64,000 nucleotides of DNA from Vicinamibacterales bacterium (GCA_029940535.1 JAPYUM010000009.1:13607-77606); one strand, 5' to 3'; shown: positions 19,304 through 62,378, numbered from the stretch's first letter. The notes: a model not told the origin generated them from the sequence alone. Translations and numbers: made by a program.

Positions 19304-20257
19304 TCAGTCTGATGACGAGATGACGACCCGAAACCCCATGAACGGTCGTCTCACACCAGGGTCGGCACCGCCTCTGACGGCGGCGCGCACGTTGCGTTCG
19401 GTGTCCGAGAACGAACCGCCCCGTATGACCCACAGCGCGTCGTCACCCAGTCGGTCGCGATCGTCAGCCGCGGAAAACGGATACGGCTGATAGGGGCTCC
19501 GGGTCCACTCCCAGACGTTCCCGCTCATGTCGAACAACCCGAACGGGCACTCAGGGCATGGAAACGTGCCGACCGGTGCGGTGCCCTCGCCGCCGTAGTT
19601 GGCGTGGGCGCGGCCTGGGGGCCCGTTCCAGGGGAACACACGGCCGTCCGTGCCCCGGGCGGCCTTCTCCCACTGGGCTTCGGTCGGGAGCGTGACTCGC
19701 CAGCCCGCGTCGAGGAGCCGGGTGAGCTCTGACGGGGTCTCGGACGACTGGCGGAGGACCCGGTCGAGCCAGCGGCAGTAGGCCAGGGCGTCGGGCCAGG
19801 AGACCGACGACACGGGGTGGTCGGGCGGACCCTGCAGCGTGTCGACGCCGACATCGACGCCGGCGTCTGCGGCGAACGCACCGAACTGGGCCACGGTCAC
19901 CTCGTAGCGACCGATATAGAACGAGACCAGGTCCAGACGACCCTGCGCCTGTCCAGCGGACCACCGCTCGTTGTCGAACGCCATCGGGTCAGTCCGCGCG
20001 TCGTTTCCCATCAGGAACGTGCCGGCCGGGACCTCCACGAACCCGAGGCGCACGTCGTCAGGAAGAAACCAGGCGCCGGCACGGAATCCCGCCAGTGCAG
20101 CCGGCAGGGCGACGACCGACGACTGGGTGTCGCCGGTCGCGGCCTGGTCCGGCCGCTCTGCCCACAACCACCCCGCCACCCCCACGACAAGCAACGCCAA
20201 CACGGACAACCCCACGACCGGGGTCGCCGGGGCCTGGGCGTTCGATTCCTTCGTCAT
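19304..20257 (-). CDS. Formylglycine-generating-enzyme (SUMF1/FGE-sulfatase) domain protein, membrane anchored
   Basis: N-terminal TM segment. YIGRYEVTVAQF, HPVSSVSWPDALAYCRWL, LPTEAQWEKAARG, GNVWEWT, IRGGSF and GFRVV motifs. Confidence 0.85.
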   Translation of the reverse strand: MTKESNAQAPATPVVGLSVLALLVVGVAGWLWAERPDQAATGDTQSSVVALPAALAGFRAGAWFLPDDVRLGFVEVPAGTFLMGNDARTDPMAFDNERWSAGQAQGRLDLVSFYIGRYEVTVAQFGAFAADAGVDVGVDTLQGPPDHPVSSVSWPDALAYCRWLDRVLRQSSETPSELTRLLDAGWRVTLPTEAQWEKAARGTDGRVFPWNGPPGRAHANYGGEGTAPVGTFPCPECPFGLFDMSGNVWEWTRSPYQPYPFSAADDRDRLGDDALWVIRGGSFSDTERNVRAAVRGGADPGVRRPFMGFRVVISSSD

Positions 20258-20360
20258 GGCCAGACCCCCGAGGCATCCAGCCCCGCACACGCCGGCGTAC
20301 GTAGGCGCTGGTCTTCTGATCGGCCAGCCTTGGCACCACACGAAACGTCCGAACGCGGCT

Positions 20361-21965
20361 TCAACATGCGAAGCTCCATCCGTGGTCGCACGCCCGTGCG
20401 AAGAGCGCTGGCTCCGGCATGTCGAGGAGGTTCGGCCCAGCCTCTCGCAGCAGCAGACGGAGATCCAGGGAGCGCGGGTCGGCTGAGAGCGTGTCCCCGT
20501 CCCGGAGGTTCAAGCACGCGGCCTGGAAACGGAGTTCGCAGGCCTTCCCGAAGTACGCGAGGGCCTGCTCGGTGTCGGCGGCCACGAGCGCACCGTCCGT
20601 GAAATGTCGGCCCAGTTCGTTGCAGGCCCAGCCCGCATTGTCGCCGCAATAGTTGGTCTCGATCTGGAGGAGACGCTGGCACGCCAGGGGCCGATCCTCG
20701 GCGCAGGCCTGCTCCCAGAAGGGAACTGTGTCGCCCCGGTGTTGGCCATCGGTGGCGCCAAGCGCCGTCATGGCGCCAAAAAACAGGATCCACGCGGTGA
20801 TGTGCACCAGGTTGGCTCGCGCCGGGCTCCAATTCGCGCCCCACTTCGCCCAGACGGCAGCCCCGCTCGTGCCAAGAGACGCCGCCAGGCGGTCGATCCA
20901 CTGTACGCTGAGATTGAGCAATGGCACACACAGCAATTTGTCATAGAAGGTCGGGATACCCAGTGCCCCGAGCACCGCGTAGAGCACGAACACACCCATG
21001 CCATACAGCATCCCGAACAGCGCTTTCCCGAGTGGTGTCCGGGGCGACGTGGAGGGATCGGTGACCAGCAGATGGAGCCCGAGGAACACCGCGCTCGGAA
21101 TTTCAGAGTCGATGAAGTACGGCACCCCGGTGACGGCGGAGTACAGCGCGCTCGAGCCGAACAACACGATCGCCGCGGACCCGGCGACCAACGTGATCGA
21201 GAAAAAATACATCACCACCAACCCGATCGCGAACAGGAACAGGTAGATGCGCGGCGCGAGCGTGAGTGTCGACGCGATGTCCTGGCCCCAGGTCAGGTCG
21301 GTGGTGCCGGTGACGATCAGAATCAGGGAGAACAACCCGAGCGAGAACGCGGACGGGTTGAAGATGTGCGCGCGGCGTCCGTCGCGTCGCCACTGGACCA
21401 GCTCTTTCCCCAGGAAGCCGGCCGCGATCATCAGGAATTGGAGGTAGAACCAGTCGTCTCGGAACCAGAGGAACAGATTGGTGCTGAAGATGATGGGAAA
21501 CGGTCCGAAGCCCAACGTATAGCGTTCGCGGCGCGACCAGGCCAGTAGCATGTCGAACCCGTAGGCGAAGAGCAGTTGGGCTACCAGCAGCCAGGCATGG
21601 TCATAGACCGGCCGCCAGAAATAGCCCCAGTAGATGAACACCGCGATTTGCACACCCGCCTGGAGGTAGTGCTGGGGACGTAGCACCAGGTGCACGGTGC
21701 GTCCGGCCGTGTCTCGACGGAGTCTGACCAGCAGCAGACCAAGCCACGCCAGCAATCCGGCCCCCGCGGCCCAGACCGAGCTGACGAGGGTGAGGTTGCC
21801 GGATACGCGGGGCATGAGCGACACCGCCAGCAGAGCCGATGCCAAGATGGCGGGGATCCAGAGCGGACGGAGCGAGACCGCGGGCGTGATCGCGGCGCGG
21901 GTCTGTGCCTCGCGGGGGTCGTGTTGGCGTCCCGTCTGGGGGCGCCGTCGTCGTGCGGCTGACAT
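20361..21965 (-). CDS. Polytopic membrane protein with NqrB/RnfD-like motif and a C-terminal Cys-rich Sel1-like domain
   Basis: At least 10 hydrophobic segments. HLLVTDPSTSPRTPLGKALFG resembles the (A)TDP.T.P..GK motif of NqrB/RnfD. The C-terminal ~140 aa contain paired Cys and NELG/AYFGKAC repeats. Confidence 0.8.
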   Translation of the reverse strand: MSAARRRRPQTGRQHDPREAQTRAAITPAVSLRPLWIPAILASALLAVSLMPRVSGNLTLVSSVWAAGAGLLAWLGLLLVRLRRDTAGRTVHLVLRPQHYLQAGVQIAVFIYWGYFWRPVYDHAWLLVAQLLFAYGFDMLLAWSRRERYTLGFGPFPIIFSTNLFLWFRDDWFYLQFLMIAAGFLGKELVQWRRDGRRAHIFNPSAFSLGLFSLILIVTGTTDLTWGQDIASTLTLAPRIYLFLFAIGLVVMYFFSITLVAGSAAIVLFGSSALYSAVTGVPYFIDSEIPSAVFLGLHLLVTDPSTSPRTPLGKALFGMLYGMGVFVLYAVLGALGIPTFYDKLLCVPLLNLSVQWIDRLAASLGTSGAAVWAKWGANWSPARANLVHITAWILFFGAMTALGATDGQHRGDTVPFWEQACAEDRPLACQRLLQIETNYCGDNAGWACNELGRHFTDGALVAADTEQALAYFGKACELRFQAACLNLRDGDTLSADPRSLDLRLLLREAGPNLLDMPEPALFARACDHGWSFAC

Positions 21966-22043
21966 CGGATAGGTCTGCTGCTTGTACCGCACCGGTCGGC
22001 CGGGCGCAAGCCGACACATCAGTCAAGGCGCGCCGGAGCGGCG

Positions 22044-22049
22044 TATAAT
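22044..22049 (+). promoter_or_regulatory. Perfect TATAAT box in the divergent intergenic region upstream of the decarboxylase cluster
   Basis: gcgTATAATgct is read directly from the sequence. I found no convincing -35 element. Confidence 0.3.
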
Positions 22050-22096
22050 GCTGGCACGTCCGGCGCGAACAGGACTCCCCGGCACGTGTAATTTCC

Positions 22097-22243
22097 GTGG
22101 TCACCGCATTCAGCGTCTTCATCAACGGCATCAGCGGCGTGTTCACCGGTATCGCGGTGCTCTATGTGCTGATGAAACTGCTGGCGATCGCCGCACCGCG
22201 TTCGACCGCCGACTCGACCCCGCCCAAACCAACGACCCGCTAG
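22097..22243 (+). CDS. OadG-like small membrane subunit of a Na+-translocating decarboxylase (48 aa)
   Basis: GTG start. VVTAFSVFINGISGVFTGIAVLYVLMKLLAIAA followed by a Pro/Thr tail matches the OAD_gamma pattern. It lies immediately upstream of the beta subunit. No obvious SD, and it is below the ORF-track size cutoff. Confidence 0.5.
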   Translation: MVTAFSVFINGISGVFTGIAVLYVLMKLLAIAAPRSTADSTPPKPTTR

Positions 22244-22253
22244 CAGCCCGTGG
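22241..22253 (+). repeat. Copy 1 of exact 13-mer TAGCAGCCCGTGG (stop of the OadG-like ORF, 6 nt, GTG start of the beta subunit)
   Basis: Read directly from the sequence and identical to 26553-26565 and 62366-62378. Confidence 0.95.
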
Positions 22254-23353
22254 CCTTCTTCGAGCAACTCGGCATTCTGGCCGTCACCCCGGGCATGGTG
22301 GTGATGTGGCTGGTCGCCTTGACGTTGATCTATCTCGCGATCGGCCGGGAGTACGAGCCGCTCCTGCTGCTGCCGATCGGGTTCGGCGTCCTGGTCGCGA
22401 ATCTGCCACTCACTGGGTTGATGACCCCGGGCGAGGGGCTGATCTGGCGGTTCTATCACTACGGCGTGGAGTGGGAAGTCATTCCGCCGCTCATCTTTCT
22501 CGGGCTTGGCGCCCACACCGACTTCGGCCCGCTGCTGTCACAGCCACGGCTGATCTTTCTCGGCGCGGCCGCCCAGGGCGGTGTGTACGCGACGTTCTTC
22601 GCGGCGCAGGCATTCGGCTTCACGCTGCAGGAATCGGCGACGATCGGGATCATCGGCGGCGCCGACGGCCCCACCACCATTTTTCTGGCGGCCCAACTCG
22701 CGCCGCATCTCTTGGGTGCCTGCGCGGTCGCGGCGTATTCCTACATGGCGTTGGTGCCGATCATTCAACCGCCGATCATGCGACTGCTGACCACCGAGCA
22801 GGAACGCAAGATTCGCATGAAGAAGGCGCGCAAGGTGACGGCGCGAGAGAAGCTCTGGTTTCCGGTCACGGCCACCATCGTCATCCTGCTCCTGGTTCCG
22901 GCCTCGGCGCCGCTGATGGCGATGTTCATGCTGGGCAATCTGTTTCGCGAGTCGAAGGTGGTGGAGCGGTTGACCGACACGGCGCAGAACGCGCTGATGA
23001 ACATCACCACCATCTTTCTGGGAGTGGCCGTGGGCGCCACGATGAGCGCCGACGCCTTCCTGCGGGGCGACGTCATTTTTATCTTCGGGCTGGGGTTGGC
23101 GGCGTTTTGCGTCAGTACCGCGTGCGGGCTGCTGCTCGCCAAACTGATGAACCTGTTCACGAACGATAAGATCAACCCGCTGGTCGGTGCCGCCGGAGTT
23201 TCCGCCGTTCCGATGGCGGCACGGGTCGCCCACAAGGTGGGAGCCGAGGCGGACAAGAAGAACTATCTTCTGATGTTTGCGATGGGTCCCAACGTGTCCG
23301 GCGTCATCGGCACGGTGGTCGCGGCCGGTATTTTCTTGACGATGTTGGGGTAG
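22250..23353 (+). CDS. Na+-translocating decarboxylase beta subunit (OadB/GcdB/MmdB family)
   Basis: MAFFEQLGILAVTPGMVVMWLVALTLIYLAIGREYEPLLLLPIGFGVLVANLP aligns by eye with OadB N-termini. The protein is multi-TM throughout. Confidence 0.9.
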   Translation: MAFFEQLGILAVTPGMVVMWLVALTLIYLAIGREYEPLLLLPIGFGVLVANLPLTGLMTPGEGLIWRFYHYGVEWEVIPPLIFLGLGAHTDFGPLLSQPRLIFLGAAAQGGVYATFFAAQAFGFTLQESATIGIIGGADGPTTIFLAAQLAPHLLGACAVAAYSYMALVPIIQPPIMRLLTTEQERKIRMKKARKVTAREKLWFPVTATIVILLLVPASAPLMAMFMLGNLFRESKVVERLTDTAQNALMNITTIFLGVAVGATMSADAFLRGDVIFIFGLGLAAFCVSTACGLLLAKLMNLFTNDKINPLVGAAGVSAVPMAARVAHKVGAEADKKNYLLMFAMGPNVSGVIGTVVAAGIFLTMLG

Positions 23354-23405
23354 CTCGACAGGGTGACACGGGCCGCACCCGGTCTGCCCAGCGGGGGGAA
23401 GCGAC

Positions 23406-23621
23406 ATGGCAGAGGATGTATTGGCGCCGCTGGCCGGCAAAGTGCTGTCGGTGACCGTCGGCGTCGGGGACGTCGTCGAAGAGGACGATGAACTGCTGGT
23501 CCTCGAAGCGATGAAGATGGAGACCGTGGTGTACGCCCCGGCCGATGGCACGGTCAGCACAATCATGGCGCAGGTGGGTCAACAGGTCGAGGAAGACGAT
23601 CCTCTGATGACGCTGGGGTGA
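23406..23621 (+). CDS. Minimal biotinyl carrier domain protein (71 aa)
   Basis: LVLEAMKMETVV contains the E-A-M-K-M biotinylation motif. GGGGAAG RBS. Confidence 0.85.
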   Translation: MAEDVLAPLAGKVLSVTVGVGDVVEEDDELLVLEAMKMETVVYAPADGTVSTIMAQVGQQVEEDDPLMTLG

Positions 23622-23628
23622 GGAGACC

Positions 23629-24786
23629 ATGAATTTCGAGCTGACCGACGAACAGAGGCTGGTGCAGGAGACGGCCCGGGAGTTCGCGCGGAACGACATC
23701 GCGCCGACCCTGGCGGACGAAGAGAAGCGCCACGAATTCCGACTGGACCGGGTGGCCAGGATGGGCGACTTGGGCTTCTTTTCCTGCGGAGTGCCGGAAG
23801 AGTACGGGGGCACCGGATTCGGGTTCATGGAGTCGGTGCTGATGGCCGAACAAGTGGCCAAAGTGTCGGCGTCGTGGCGTTTGCCGTTCAACATGCAGAA
23901 CCTCGGCCCCGCCCTGACGGTGGCGAGATTCGGTAGCGACGAACAGAAGCAACGGTTCATCCCCGGGTGGGTGGACGGCACCCAGATTGGCTTTTTCGGC
24001 ATGACCGAGCCAGACAGTGGCTCTGACGTGGCCAGCATGAAGACCGTGGCTCGCGACATGGGCGACCACTGGGAGGTGACCGGTAGCAAGATCTGGGTCT
24101 CGAACGCGACGCAGGGCGACGCCGGACTTCTGTATGTGATGACAAATCCGGAGAAAAAGCACCGCGGCATGAGCGCGTTCATCCTGCAGCCGAAGGTCGT
24201 CGACGATTTCGTGGCCACTGACATCGAGACCAAACTCGGGTTGCACTGTGCGCCGACCGGTGAGATGGCGTTTCACGGGACAAAACTGCCCAAGGACGCG
24301 TTGCTTGGTCAGGCGGGCGATGGCTTCAAGATCTGCATGTGGCAACTGAACAACACGCGTATCGGCTGTGCGGCCGGGGCGCTGGGCGTGGCCGGGGCGG
24401 CGCTCGACGCGGCCGTCGAGTACGCCAATGAACGTACCCAGTTCGGGAAGCCCATCTCGCAGCACCAGATGGTGCAGGCGCAGATCGCCGAGATGGCGGT
24501 GGAGCACCACGCGGCGCAGTTGCTCGTGTATCGCGCCGCCTGGCTCAAGGACCACGGCAAGCCGAATCAGTACGAAACTTCCATGGCGAAGTTGCAGGCC
24601 TCCGAGGCCGCGGTGCACGCCGCCAACGAGTGCATGAAAATCTTCGGGTCGTACGGGTATTCCACGGAGTATCCGGCCGAGCGCTTGTATCGTGACGCCA
24701 AGTCTCTGCAAGTGGTCGAGGGCACCTCCAACGTGCAGAAGCTGATCATCGCGGGTATCGCGAGCGGTCACGTAGCCAATCGCTGA
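23629..24786 (+). CDS. Acyl-CoA dehydrogenase (FAD)
   Basis: The whole 385 aa look ACAD-like: TDEQRLVQETAREFARNDIAP, GMTEPDSGSD, YEGTSNVQ-like VEGTSNVQKLIIA. Confidence 0.9.
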   Translation: MNFELTDEQRLVQETAREFARNDIAPTLADEEKRHEFRLDRVARMGDLGFFSCGVPEEYGGTGFGFMESVLMAEQVAKVSASWRLPFNMQNLGPALTVARFGSDEQKQRFIPGWVDGTQIGFFGMTEPDSGSDVASMKTVARDMGDHWEVTGSKIWVSNATQGDAGLLYVMTNPEKKHRGMSAFILQPKVVDDFVATDIETKLGLHCAPTGEMAFHGTKLPKDALLGQAGDGFKICMWQLNNTRIGCAAGALGVAGAALDAAVEYANERTQFGKPISQHQMVQAQIAEMAVEHHAAQLLVYRAAWLKDHGKPNQYETSMAKLQASEAAVHAANECMKIFGSYGYSTEYPAERLYRDAKSLQVVEGTSNVQKLIIAGIASGHVANR

Positions 24787-24821
24787 CTGGTCCGCCGCCA
24801 CCTCACTCAAGGATCGACGCC

Positions 24822-26555
24822 GTGAAACCCTATTTCGACACGATGGACCCGTTCGGGAAGGCGCTGAAACCAGGACGCATCAAGCGCGCCGCCTCGAGCG
24901 CCGACGCGCTCCGTGAGGTCGAGGCCGGTATCGGCGAGGCGGTCACGGCCGCCCACGAGGTCGGGTTTCCCACCGAGAAGATCAACAAACGCGGGTGGAT
25001 GACCGTCTACCAGCGACTCGAGTATCTCGTGGACGCCGGTACCTGGTGTCCATTGCATACGCTCTACAACCCCCTGGAGAACGCAGAGGGCACCACCAAC
25101 GTCGTCGATGGCCTGGGACAGATCGACGGTCGGTGGGCGGTTGTCATCGGGTTCGACAACAAGGTGATGGCGGGTGCCTGGCTGCCCGGACAGTCGGAGA
25201 ACATCCTGCGAGCCACCGATCTGGCCGCGCGGTTGCACATCCCGCTGGTCTGGTTGGTCAACTGCAGCGGCGCCAAGCTGCCCGAGCAAGAAAAGTTCTA
25301 CGCCAATCGCCGCGGAGCCGGTACCCCGTTTTACCGCCACGCCGAGTTGGAGCAAGCGGGTATTCCGGTGCTGGCCGGGATCTATGGCACGAATCCGGCC
25401 GGCGGGGGATATCAGTCCATCAGTCCGACCATCCTGCTGGCTCACAAAGATGCCAACATGGCGGTCGGCGGCGTCGGCATCGTGTCCGGGATGGCGCCCA
25501 AAGGCGGATTCGACACGGCCATGGTCGAAGAGCTGATCGCGAAGGCGAATGCGTTCACCGGGCGTCCTCCCGGTGACGTGGCCACCCACCACGACGCCAC
25601 GGGGTTCTTCACGCGGGTCTACGACGAGGAGACCGGTGTCCTCGACGGGCTCAAGGACTACATGCGGGCCATGCCTGCCTACGGCGCGACGTTCTTTCAA
25701 GCGGCTGACCCGAAGGACCCGGCGTTTCCGATCGACGACCTGTACCACCTGCTGCCGGCGAATCCGAAGGAGGTCTACGACTTCGACGAGATCCTGGCCC
25801 GGCTGGTCGACGGCAGCGAGCGACTCGAATTTCGGCCCGACTACGGTCCCGAAGTGTTCACCGGCGTGTGCAAGATCGACGGACGACTCGTTGGGTGTAT
25901 CGGGAATCGTCAGGGGTACTTGGGGAAGGGCTATCCCGAATACGCCGACTATCCCGGCATGGGGGGCAAGCTCTATCGCCAGGGTCTCATCAAGATGAAC
26001 GAGTTCGTGGCTCTGTGCGGGCGCGACCGACTCCCGATCATCTGGTTTCAGGACACTTCAGGCATCGACGTCGGCGAGCTCGCTGAGAAAGCCGAAGTGC
26101 TGGGATTGGGGCAGGGTCTGATCTACTCGATTCAGCAGACCGATGTGCCGATGATGCTCGTCGTGCTGCGCAAGGGAACCGCCGCCGCCCACTACGTCAT
26201 GGGTGGCCCCACCGCCAATCGTCACAACGCCTTCAGCCTCGGCACCCCGGCCACCGAGATCGAGGTCATGCATGGCGAAACGGCGGCCGTGGCGACCTAC
26301 GCCCGACGCGCGGCCAAGGAGCAGGCGGCCGGTCGCTCGCTGGATCCGGTCATCGAGAAGATGAACGAACTCGTTGAGCGCTATCACGAGACCTCGCGAC
26401 CCGCGTATTGCGCGCAGCAGGGGTTCGTAGACGAAGTCGTCAAGCTCACCGAGCTCCGACGCTACCTACAGGCGTTCACCGGCGCCGTCTATCAGAACCC
26501 CACGTCAATCTGTCCCCGTCACCACATGCTGCTACCACGCGTGATACGGGGCTAG
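24822..26555 (+). CDS. Carboxyltransferase subunit (acyl-CoA carboxylase/decarboxylase family, GcdA/MmdA-like)
   Basis: 577 aa with two crotonase-like halves. GGAWLPG, GGGYQS and GPTANRHNAF-type motifs. Confidence 0.9.
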   Translation: MKPYFDTMDPFGKALKPGRIKRAASSADALREVEAGIGEAVTAAHEVGFPTEKINKRGWMTVYQRLEYLVDAGTWCPLHTLYNPLENAEGTTNVVDGLGQIDGRWAVVIGFDNKVMAGAWLPGQSENILRATDLAARLHIPLVWLVNCSGAKLPEQEKFYANRRGAGTPFYRHAELEQAGIPVLAGIYGTNPAGGGYQSISPTILLAHKDANMAVGGVGIVSGMAPKGGFDTAMVEELIAKANAFTGRPPGDVATHHDATGFFTRVYDEETGVLDGLKDYMRAMPAYGATFFQAADPKDPAFPIDDLYHLLPANPKEVYDFDEILARLVDGSERLEFRPDYGPEVFTGVCKIDGRLVGCIGNRQGYLGKGYPEYADYPGMGGKLYRQGLIKMNEFVALCGRDRLPIIWFQDTSGIDVGELAEKAEVLGLGQGLIYSIQQTDVPMMLVVLRKGTAAAHYVMGGPTANRHNAFSLGTPATEIEVMHGETAAVATYARRAAKEQAAGRSLDPVIEKMNELVERYHETSRPAYCAQQGFVDEVVKLTELRRYLQAFTGAVYQNPTSICPRHHMLLPRVIRG

Positions 26556-26565
26556 CAGCCCGTGG
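26553..26565 (+). repeat. Copy 2 of exact 13-mer TAGCAGCCCGTGG (stop of the carboxyltransferase gene)
   Basis: Read directly from the sequence. With its flank it matches copy 1 at 17 of 18 nt. Confidence 0.95.
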
Positions 26566-26636
26566 CGTTCACGGCCGCTTGCTCTCGCTGATTCCAGCGC
26601 TCACGCCACCGCTGGCGACCTCCCCATCCGGTCGGG

Positions 26637-27146
26637 TCAGGCCCGTCCTCGAATGACTTTCAGTGTCGTCCGGATCTGTCCGACGTGCATGGTGGTGTGT
26701 TCAGCCGCGTGAAGAAACAACCCACGGACGGTGGACGGCAGCTCGCCGCGACCGACCGGACGGGGCTCTGGCAGCACGTGGTCCGGTGTCTCTTTCAGCG
26801 TCGTCAGGCAGACGTCGATGCGCGCCAGCGTTGCCTCGAACAGGGCGTCTTTGGAGCGTTGCGCCGCGAATTCCGCCTCGCGCCGAAGATACTCGAGCTG
26901 GGCCGGGTCGAGCGACTCACATCGGGCATAGGTAAACAGGCGGTCCAGGCTGCCGGCGATATGCGCGAGGTGGAACCCGATCGGCGCCGCCCCGCCCGGA
27001 GCGGCACGAATCTCCAGGGCTGAAGTGTCGCGGGCCAGCGCGGTCAGCTCGTGCCGTGCTTGCACGAGTGCATGCGCGACCGGCATGAGGGCGTCCGTAT
27101 GGCCGTCGATGTTGCCAAGGAGCCACGCTTCCGGTTCGGTCACCAC
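26637..27146 (-). CDS. DinB-family (DinB_2) metalloenzyme-like protein
   Basis: Four-helix pattern with HLAHIAGSLDRL and HAAEHTTMHVGQI. The GTG start lies 4 nt after the TAG stop of the upstream PQQ dehydrogenase. Confidence 0.8.
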   Translation of the reverse strand: MVTEPEAWLLGNIDGHTDALMPVAHALVQARHELTALARDTSALEIRAAPGGAAPIGFHLAHIAGSLDRLFTYARCESLDPAQLEYLRREAEFAAQRSKDALFEATLARIDVCLTTLKETPDHVLPEPRPVGRGELPSTVRGLFLHAAEHTTMHVGQIRTTLKVIRGRA

Positions 27147-60670: not shown

Positions 60671-62368
60671 TTGAAGACTCGTCTGACACACACGTTGCTC
60701 GTTGTCGCACTCGTTGGTCTGGCCCCGGCGGCGCCCGGATTGGCGCAAACGCCGAACATTAGGCCTGTCACCGACGCCACGTTACAGAACCCCGACCCGA
60801 GCGACTGGCTGAGCTGGCGCCGCACGCTCGATGGGTCTGGCTTCAGCCCGCTTGAACAGATCAACACCGACAACGTTGGAGACCTGCGCCTGGCCTGGTC
60901 CTGGGGGCTTGAGCCGGGGGTGTCGCAGACCACGCCGATCGTGCGGGATGGCGTGATGTTCATTGTCAACCCGGGCAACGTGGTGCATGCGCTCGATGCC
61001 CGTACTGGCGAGCTGATCTGGGAGTATCGCTACGAGCTCGAAGAGCGACGCCGTGCCGGCGCGCAGATGCGCAGCCTGGCGATCTATCAAGATCTCATTC
61101 TGCTCAACACCGTCGACGCCCATATGGTTGGGATTGACGCCCGTACCGGCGAGGAGCGCTGGAATACCACCGTCGGCACCGCCGAAGGCTACACCTTCAC
61201 GAGCGGACCGATTGTCGCCAACGGCACGATCGTCACCGGGTTGACCGGGTGCGGCCGGTACCGCGAAGAGACCTGCTACGTCGTCGGTCTCGATGGCCGC
61301 ACCGGCCGCGAGCTCTGGCGCACGTCGACGGTGGCGCTTCCCGGGGAGCCTGGCGGCGACTCATGGAGCGACCTCCCCGTGATGTTCCGGGCCGGCGGGG
61401 ACGCCTGGATTCCGGGGAGCTTTGACCCCGGCACGGGGCTCCTCTTCTGGGGGACGGCGCAGGCGAAGCCGTGGGCGCGCGCCGTGCGGGGCACGGCCGG
61501 CGATGCGCTGTATACCAACTCGACGCTGGCGCTCGACCCGGCCACGGGCGAGCTCCAGTGGTATTTCCAACACATTCCCGGTGACTCACACGATATGGAC
61601 GAGACGTTCGAGCGTATTCTCGTCGACTACGACGGCCGGCAGTCGGTCTTCACCATGGGCAAACTCGCGATCTTGTGGGAGAACGACAGGGAGACGGGGG
61701 AGTTGGTGCGGGCCACCGATCTCGGCTATCAGAATCTGTTCGATATCGACAGTGGGCAGGCGATCTACAAAGACGGCATGGTGCAGGAAATCGGTGACGT
61801 GGTCGACTTTTGTCCGAGCACCGGTGGGTTCAAGAGCCTGCGGGCGATGGCCTACCACCCGGGTATCGAGGCGTTCTACGTACCGCTCAACCTCAACTGC
61901 GAGTCCGCCGCGTTTCTCCCGGTCGAGCGACGTCCCGGGAGCGGGGGCACCGGCGGCGTCCGCGACAAGGTCTATCACTTCCATCCGAAGAGTCCGGATC
62001 ACATCGGCGAGTTCCAGTCGCTGGACCTGCGCACGGGCGCCACCCGGTGGCGGCAGCGTCGGCGGACCCCCTTCAACACCGCGGCGCTCGCGACCGGCGG
62101 CGGACTCGTCTTTGTCGGGGACTGGGAGCGCTATGTCATGGCCTATGACGCCGACAGCGGTGAGGAACTCTGGCAGACCCGCCTGCCACAGATGACCAAC
62201 GGCTTCCCGATTACCTACGCCGTCGACGGTGTGCAGTATGTCGCCATCGGGACCGGCCCATCGATCAGCGCGAGCTGGGCCACGCTGATTCCAGCCGAAC
62301 TGCTCCCCGAGAAGAAGAACCCGCGCACCACCGGCGGCATCTTCGTGTTCGCGTTGCCCTCACAGTAG
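60671..62368 (+). CDS. Secreted PQQ-binding beta-propeller dehydrogenase (quinoprotein alcohol dehydrogenase-like)
   Basis: TTG start giving MKTRLTHTLLVVALVGLAPAAPGLAQ. LSWRRTLDGSGFSPL..IN..NV..L..AW, and repeated DA.TGE..W motifs. Confidence 0.85.
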   Translation: MKTRLTHTLLVVALVGLAPAAPGLAQTPNIRPVTDATLQNPDPSDWLSWRRTLDGSGFSPLEQINTDNVGDLRLAWSWGLEPGVSQTTPIVRDGVMFIVNPGNVVHALDARTGELIWEYRYELEERRRAGAQMRSLAIYQDLILLNTVDAHMVGIDARTGEERWNTTVGTAEGYTFTSGPIVANGTIVTGLTGCGRYREETCYVVGLDGRTGRELWRTSTVALPGEPGGDSWSDLPVMFRAGGDAWIPGSFDPGTGLLFWGTAQAKPWARAVRGTAGDALYTNSTLALDPATGELQWYFQHIPGDSHDMDETFERILVDYDGRQSVFTMGKLAILWENDRETGELVRATDLGYQNLFDIDSGQAIYKDGMVQEIGDVVDFCPSTGGFKSLRAMAYHPGIEAFYVPLNLNCESAAFLPVERRPGSGGTGGVRDKVYHFHPKSPDHIGEFQSLDLRTGATRWRQRRRTPFNTAALATGGGLVFVGDWERYVMAYDADSGEELWQTRLPQMTNGFPITYAVDGVQYVAIGTGPSISASWATLIPAELLPEKKNPRTTGGIFVFALPSQ

Positions 62369-62378
62369 CAGCCCGTGG
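62366..62378 (+). repeat. Copy 3 of exact 13-mer TAGCAGCCCGTGG (stop of the PQQ dehydrogenase gene)
   Basis: Read directly from the sequence. Confidence 0.95.

Follow-up and report, generated by a model that had tools for sequence, protein, structure and literature searches.

The window analysed here is a 64,000-nucleotide stretch of DNA from a Vicinamibacterales bacterium (GCA_029940535.1 JAPYUM010000009.1:13607-77606). The element in question is a cluster of five genes on its + strand (22097-26555), gcdD, gcdB, gcdC, acd and gcdA, whose sequences support the assignment of a Na+-translocating glutaconyl-CoA decarboxylase (Gcd; biotin-dependent decarboxylase family, TC 3.B.1) with a linked acyl-CoA dehydrogenase (Acd). 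The five open reading frames (ORFs) are intact, encode proteins of 48, 367, 71, 385 and 577 residues and are separated by gaps of 6, 52, 7 and 35 nucleotides, in agreement with the gene order and the gaps of 6 to 52 nt given in the initial annotation. The gcdD gene (22097-22243) encodes a miniature OadG/GcdD-like subunit with a single transmembrane helix followed by a short tail rich in Pro and Thr. It is followed by gcdB (22250-23353), encoding a membrane subunit of the OAD_beta family predicted to decarboxylate carboxybiotin and translocate Na+, and by gcdC (23406-23621), encoding a biotin carrier that contains the biotinyl domain alone (Biotin_lipoyl match). The acyl-CoA dehydrogenase (ACAD) gene acd (23629-24786) contains three ACAD domains in Pfam, and the last gene, gcdA (24822-26555), encodes a Carboxyl_trans protein predicted to transfer CO2 from glutaconyl-CoA to biotin with release of crotonyl-CoA. 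A pattern scan of one genome per species revealed 485 stretches encoding GcdA relatives, the best 80 of which were used for locus comparison. The same five genes are syntenic at ∼55 loci from three phyla, so their arrangement in the window is not a product of chance.

The 577-residue carboxyltransferase is of the GcdA type. It aligns over its full length with the GcdA enzymes of Acidaminococcus fermentans (PDB 1pix, 717 bits) and Clostridium symbiosum (3gf3, 716 bits), whereas the next PDB match, AccD1, which is the best-scoring subunit of an ATP-dependent carboxylase, reaches 137 bits. The score is 317 bits against Carboxyl_trans (Pfam) and 128 bits against TIGR01117 (mmdA). In the phylogenetic tree, the 80 GcdA sequences form a single clade with a support of 100, apart from the three other carboxyltransferases of the genome that were included. 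The enzyme therefore belongs with GcdA. Clustering with beta subunits of ATP-dependent carboxylases, which the initial annotation had singled out as contrary to a sodium pump, is not seen. Four further carboxyltransferase matches are present elsewhere in the genome. Two of them adjoin biotin carboxylase genes (contigs C120 and C157), a third is mmdA-like (707 bits) and located beside a second OAD_beta gene on contig C159, and the fourth is weak and partial (24 bits). Biotin_carb_C loci number three in the genome (one each on C120, C157 and C15), and no biotin carboxylase lies near the cluster or on the window's contig. The suggestion that a biotin carboxylase encoded elsewhere is the true partner of this carboxyltransferase is thus not borne out, as two stand beside other carboxyltransferases and the third is on another contig.

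The C159 locus is a second sodium-decarboxylase cluster in the same genome (L099:5511-9796, minus strand). In addition to the mmdA-like carboxyltransferase, which is recognized by TIGR01117, it encodes a 170-residue biotin carrier with a linker and an OAD_beta protein (486 bits) that is 52% identical to GcdB. A pyrroloquinoline quinone (PQQ) alcohol dehydrogenase gene is directly adjacent.

GcdB matches PF03977 (OAD_beta) with 515 bits and TIGR01109 with 493 bits. Its sole solved relative is Salmonella OadB (StOadB; PDB 6iva, 399 bits), for which essential and sodium-binding residues were defined in an eLife study of 2020 (PMC7274780). The residues were mapped by counting by hand on the 6iva alignment. 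StOadB E40, D203, Y229, R304, N311 and N373 correspond to GcdB E36, D139, Y165, R240, N247 and N309, respectively, and StOadB G377, S382, R389 and N412 to GcdB G313, S318, R325 and N348; StOadB S419 corresponds to T355, with Thr in place of Ser. All the mapped essential and sodium-site positions are invariant in 16 orthologs. The sodium-site residues are all kept, and the beta subunit is not one that lacks them, as had been considered possible. GcdB thus retains all the mutationally essential residues of the OadABG pump of Salmonella, Klebsiella and Vibrio. That pump has a TIM-barrel OadA, whereas the carboxyltransferase in the window is of the acyl-CoA (crotonase-fold) type and the carrier is a separate protein.

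Acd resembles the non-decarboxylating glutaryl-CoA dehydrogenase (GDH) of Desulfococcus. Its top NCBIfam model is NF045552 (GlutCoADH_Des, the Desulfococcus-type GDH) with 430.1 bits, followed by another family with 348 bits. Its best PDB match is the non-decarboxylating Desulfococcus enzyme 3mpi (348 bits), and the solved decarboxylating GDHs score 159-194 bits. The active site was inspected for residues that determine decarboxylation, a check proposed with the initial annotation. R84 and V363-E364 of Acd align with R87 and V366-E367 of 3mpi, while Bcd/SCAD-type enzymes have Tyr-Glu at the latter position. The Arg and the Val-Glu pair are invariant in 59 aligned cluster-linked ACADs, comprising that of the window and 58 from other loci in four phyla. 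The eight other ACADs of the genome have neither feature and contain Y-E, G-E, F-E or no Glu. Since its score lies below the NF045552 cut-off of 470 bits, Acd is filed as a GDH_Des-like sister lineage rather than as an equivalog. The operon follows the two-enzyme logic of the Acd (GDH_Des, 3mpi/3mpj) and Gcd of Desulfococcus multivorans and Syntrophus aciditrophicus, including conservation of Arg87 and Val366-Glu367. It differs from the decarboxylating GcdH exemplified by human GCDH and the enzymes of Pseudomonas and Burkholderia (3d6b), in which a single soluble enzyme performs both steps without ion pumping.

Searches for a decarboxylating enzyme gave negative results. No decarboxylating-GDH-like ACAD was detected among the other ACADs of the genome in the tests run, there being no curated GcdH model to search with. 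In five genomes of the family that lack a Gcd-type pump, searches with the window's ACAD found no GcdH-like ACAD, and no match named as a GcdH reference was among the matches listed for annotated plasmids. Two ACAD groups present in those five genomes and absent here were considered as GDH candidates and rejected; one is Bcd/AcrC-like (PDB and NCBIfam) and the other AcrC-like (NCBIfam). As these extra ACAD groups are not GDH-like, the idea that the Gcd block replaces GcdH gets no support from the distribution.

The two small subunits are shorter than their counterparts in the Firmicute enzymes. GcdC matches PF00364 with 67 bits and contains the biotinyl-lysine K37 in an A-M-K-M motif, but has neither an N-terminal anchor nor an Ala/Pro linker. 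The ORF already begins at the first start codon after a stop and cannot be extended upstream, so the reduction of the carrier to a bare biotinyl domain, which had been noticed in the initial annotation, is real. A search of the genome for birA, also suggested there, identified BirA (TIGR00121, 177 bits). With the default threshold, GcdD matches no family. Relaxing the threshold yields a match to OAD_gamma (PF04277) that scores 19.4 bits, short of the gathering score of 27, and is confined to positions 2-46 of the 76 in the profile. The match covers the N-terminal half of the OadG profile and the protein lacks the C-terminal alpha-binding region. Among the GcdD orthologs, 18 of 19 match PF04277 at E ≤ 1 (best 2.7e-05); the orthologs are 41-48 residues long in three phyla and share invariant G11, G14, V15, G18 and Y23.

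Most loci of the clade, including those of Desulfobacterales, encode a GcdC of 71-73 and a GcdD of 41-48 residues. In Desulfobacterales the ranges are 71-78 and 42-44 residues, respectively, with some carriers measuring 76-92 residues as ORFs from the first start codon. The reduced carrier and small putative anchor are therefore a trait of the whole clade and not peculiar to this locus. The four-subunit make-up apparently matches that of the GcdABCD enzymes of A. fermentans and C. symbiosum, in which the biotin carrier is likewise a separate protein and GcdA is alike over its full length. In C. symbiosum, however, GcdC contains a 30-residue anchor, an Ala/Pro linker of 39-48 residues and a 70-residue domain, GcdD has ∼95 residues with a C-terminal region, and it has been suggested that the anchor and linker of GcdC, together with this region, connect the head formed by GcdA to the base formed by GcdB (PMC7145394). 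The GcdC of the window has no such anchor and linker, and its GcdD has 48 residues instead of the ∼95-107 of the Acidaminococcus and Clostridium proteins. A prediction of the GcdB-GcdA complex, with an alignment for each protein, scored 0.00 in two runs without controls and has no bearing either way.

The genome in which the operon resides is that of an apparently oxygen-respiring organism. The assembly, a metagenome-assembled genome (MAG) of Vicinamibacteria, is 4.83 Mb long and 96.9% complete, and its nearest relatives are MAGs of Vicinamibacteria/Vicinamibacterales. To judge by their isolate labels, these came from marine water, in part polar, with Arctic and Fram Strait sites among the probable origins. 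Two haem-copper oxidase loci, a single electron transfer flavoprotein (ETF) pair with an adjacent ETF-quinone oxidoreductase (ETF-QO) and NqrA (517 bits) are encoded on contigs C54, C191, C91 and C209. Together, these genes indicate a sodium-based aerobic respiratory chain, as predicted from sequence, in an acidobacterium. The sodium pump fits this energy metabolism, in view of the oxidases, ETF/ETF-QO, the Na+-translocating NADH:quinone oxidoreductase (Na+-NQR) and the second, Mmd-like sodium decarboxylase. Of the 12 genera sampled from the family, 11 encode NqrA and 10 an OadB-type pump; the Mmd-type pump is almost universal in these genera and the Gcd type is present in a subset. Published work assigns the two-enzyme Acd and Gcd route to obligate anaerobes and credits facultative anaerobes and aerobes with one GDH that also decarboxylates (PMC5852087). 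Measured against this textbook picture, the initial view that an energy-conserving decarboxylase is unexpected in a respiratory organism holds. Measured against the genomes it does not, given the frequency of Na+-NQR and OadB-type pumps in the family and the common occurrence of the block in marine Gammaproteobacteria.

The proposal that emerges is that the operon converts glutaryl-CoA to crotonyl-CoA in two steps and keeps the energy of decarboxylation as a sodium gradient. On the evidence of protein families, catalytic and sodium-site residues, synteny and genome context, we assign it a probability of roughly 80%. The initial annotation, a Na+-pumping Gcd-type decarboxylase paired with a non-decarboxylating GDH, is supported by the GcdA-type carboxyltransferase, the preserved sodium-site residues and the absence of a biotin carboxylase nearby. 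In the mechanism we infer, Acd would oxidize glutaryl-CoA to glutaconyl-CoA with retention of CO2, and its electrons would pass via the single ETF pair to ETF-QO and on to the aerobic respiratory chain. GcdA would then take the carboxyl group from glutaconyl-CoA, load it onto the biotin that GcdC carries at K37 and release crotonyl-CoA, which could enter ordinary beta-oxidation. Carboxybiotin would finally be decarboxylated on GcdB, stabilized by the helix of the miniature GcdD, with export of Na+. The pump would thereby add to a sodium economy built on Na+-NQR and the second, Mmd-like decarboxylase. The glutaryl-CoA would probably derive from lysine, tryptophan, glutarate or odd-chain dicarboxylates. 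As no 2-hydroxyglutaryl-CoA dehydratase was found in the genome, glutaconyl-CoA would come from the ACAD and not from glutamate fermentation, unlike in Acidaminococcus and Clostridium.

Several points weigh against this proposal. The score of Acd (430 bits) is below the curated equivalog cut-off of NF045552 (470 bits) and its identity to the Desulfobacterales enzymes is only ∼44%, which leaves room for another substrate or product. The Val that replaces Tyr is reported to prevent decarboxylation, a role that is putative here. No upstream pathway supplying glutaryl-CoA was identified in the examined neighbourhood of the cluster. The bridging segments of the Clostridium type are absent, a GcdC of 71 and a GcdD of 48 residues being too short for them, so the subunits may not form a stable complex, although such segments are an architectural trait of one branch and not a property of the reaction.

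The low score and identity of Acd and the lack of a supply route found near the cluster speak for the alternative that the same machinery acts on another dicarboxylyl-CoA, such as 3-methylglutaryl-/3-methylglutaconyl-CoA or another 2-enoyl-dicarboxylyl-CoA. Acd forms a lineage apart from its Desulfobacterales counterparts, although GcdA is ∼74% identical between the same groups. The end-to-end alignment of GcdA with two biochemically characterized GcdA enzymes at 717 bits argues otherwise, as does the retention in Acd of the carboxylate-binding Arg and the Val-Glu pair of 3mpi, a structure with bound glutaconyl-CoA. A different substrate is therefore improbable.

The direction of the reaction could also be reversed, with the sodium gradient driving the carboxylation of crotonyl-CoA to glutaconyl-CoA and Acd reducing the latter to glutaryl-CoA. 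Syntrophus aciditrophicus has been proposed to use such a reverse route during growth on crotonate. In principle, Gcd can work in both directions, the Na+-NQR encoded in the genome could build the required gradient, and Gcd has been described in a 'benzoate oxidizer/synthesizer' (PMC7145394). The oxidases and ETF-QO, however, favour oxidation, and a biosynthetic sink for glutaryl-CoA is not evident. Moreover, neither a benzoyl-CoA ring-cleavage hydrolase (best score 65 bits against a cut-off of 464) nor the dehydratase mentioned above was found in the genome, and we regard operation in reverse as very unlikely. It is equally hard to credit that GcdA works as an uncoupled soluble decarboxylase, off the membrane in view of the linker-less carrier and truncated anchor and with little role for GcdB: the bridging elements of the Clostridium enzyme are indeed absent and a Geobacter genome has been reported with acd-gcdA but no pump subunits (PMC2996986), but GcdB, GcdC and GcdD are intact and tightly linked here, the sodium-site residues are invariant, and GcdB and GcdD are 77-88% and 41-63% identical across phyla, none of which is expected of idle pump genes.

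In its distribution, the block resembles a self-contained module, shared laterally, that would serve the catabolism of glutaryl-CoA. The block occurs at ∼55 loci in Acidobacteriota and Gammaproteobacteria, and acd directly follows gcdC at ∼55 loci. The order D-B-C-acd-A is found at ∼33 Vicinamibacterales/Marinacidobacterales loci and in a few Woeseia-like Gammaproteobacteria, and a rotated order, A-D-B-C-acd, in ∼20 other Gammaproteobacteria. The Desulfobacterales loci share the small GcdC and GcdD and have a GcdA that is 73-75% identical, but are arranged as B-C-A, with acd upstream or on the opposite strand instead of inside the pump operon. The Desulfococcus and Syntrophus systems further differ in belonging to organisms described in the literature as obligate anaerobes, whereas the present host is predicted to respire oxygen and has no detected marker of a benzoyl-CoA pathway.

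Across phyla, joint conservation is limited to these five genes; the flanking genes are syntenic only within Vicinamibacterales, and no conserved neighbours supplying glutaryl-CoA are common to the phyla or located near the cluster. Within the order, GcdA is present in 5 of 120 other genomes (even sample), namely in 4 of 9 of the same family and 1 of 9 of one other family. This patchiness, together with the 75-80% identity between phyla, points to lateral spread of the five-gene block. Neither a donor nor a direction of transfer is claimed, since the GcdA tree cannot be rooted with outgroup branches of ∼10 changes per site.

Some loci show irregularities in gcdA. Extra copies of its last 20-49 codons lie just downstream of the intact gene at L019:7779-7945 and L070:6945-7091 and may be rearrangement remnants at the end of the operon. 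In one complete Vicinamibacterales genome (G043), the gcdA match is split into two frames at residue 521-523 (L058:6001-7732), through either a frameshift or a long-read assembly error.

The upstream and flanking regions contain further features. A divergently oriented gene pair on the minus strand (19304-22019) encodes a 552-residue polytopic membrane protein and, adjoining it, an FGE-sulfatase-like protein. The membrane protein has a Cys-rich tail and a weak match to NQR2/RnfD/RnfE, which at 22.5 bits does not reach the gathering score. Synteny of the pair with the operon is seen in 24-26 Vicinamibacterales loci and in no other phylum. The 77-nt divergent intergenic region contains a perfect TATAAT hexamer on the + strand (22044-22049), 47 nt upstream of the gcdD start, which is a possible -10 box. 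A consensus promoter scan of 21800-26900 found no full sigma-70 site, and terminator-like hairpins detected in the same interval are weak and intragenic only. An exact 13-mer, TAGCAGCCCGTGG, occurs at 22241-22253, 26553-26565 and 62366-62378, three copies compared with 0 expected in shuffles. The copies begin at the stop codons of gcdD, gcdA and one distant gene, and the GTG start of gcdB at 22250 is located inside the first. The genes around the cluster include PQQ dehydrogenases, as initially annotated, and a DinB gene.

Part of this picture is already known. The alpha subunit is named in the public annotation of these MAGs, where the GcdA relatives are called glutaconyl-CoA decarboxylase subunit alpha, and the chemistry is known from strict anaerobes. 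Literature searches linking Gcd with Acidobacteria, Woeseia or aerobes found no such paper. The complete Acd/Gcd set of this genome accompanies oxidases and Na+-NQR, and dozens of marine Acidobacteriota and Gammaproteobacteria carry the block. A broader proposal may tentatively be drawn, although we consider it less likely than not. Beyond the anaerobes, marine heterotrophs that respire oxygen and share the block laterally (Vicinamibacteria, Woeseiaceae and other Gammaproteobacteria) could routinely draw auxiliary energy from decarboxylation-driven Na+ pumping, and the stripped-down enzyme, with its 71-residue carrier and a helix of 41-48 residues, could work without the tethers of current Gcd/Oad models. 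If the tether-free enzyme is real, the carrier would either move freely or use a mode of docking that has yet to be described. If the pump is active under oxic conditions, decarboxylation would contribute to the sodium motive force in heterotrophs that are abundant in the ocean and in sediments, and genome-based metabolic models would be mistaken in inferring an 'anaerobe' from gcd genes. The linker-less carrier and truncated anchor represent a minimal natural version of this pump family, which could aid structural studies of the passage of carboxybiotin between the active site in the soluble part and that in the membrane.

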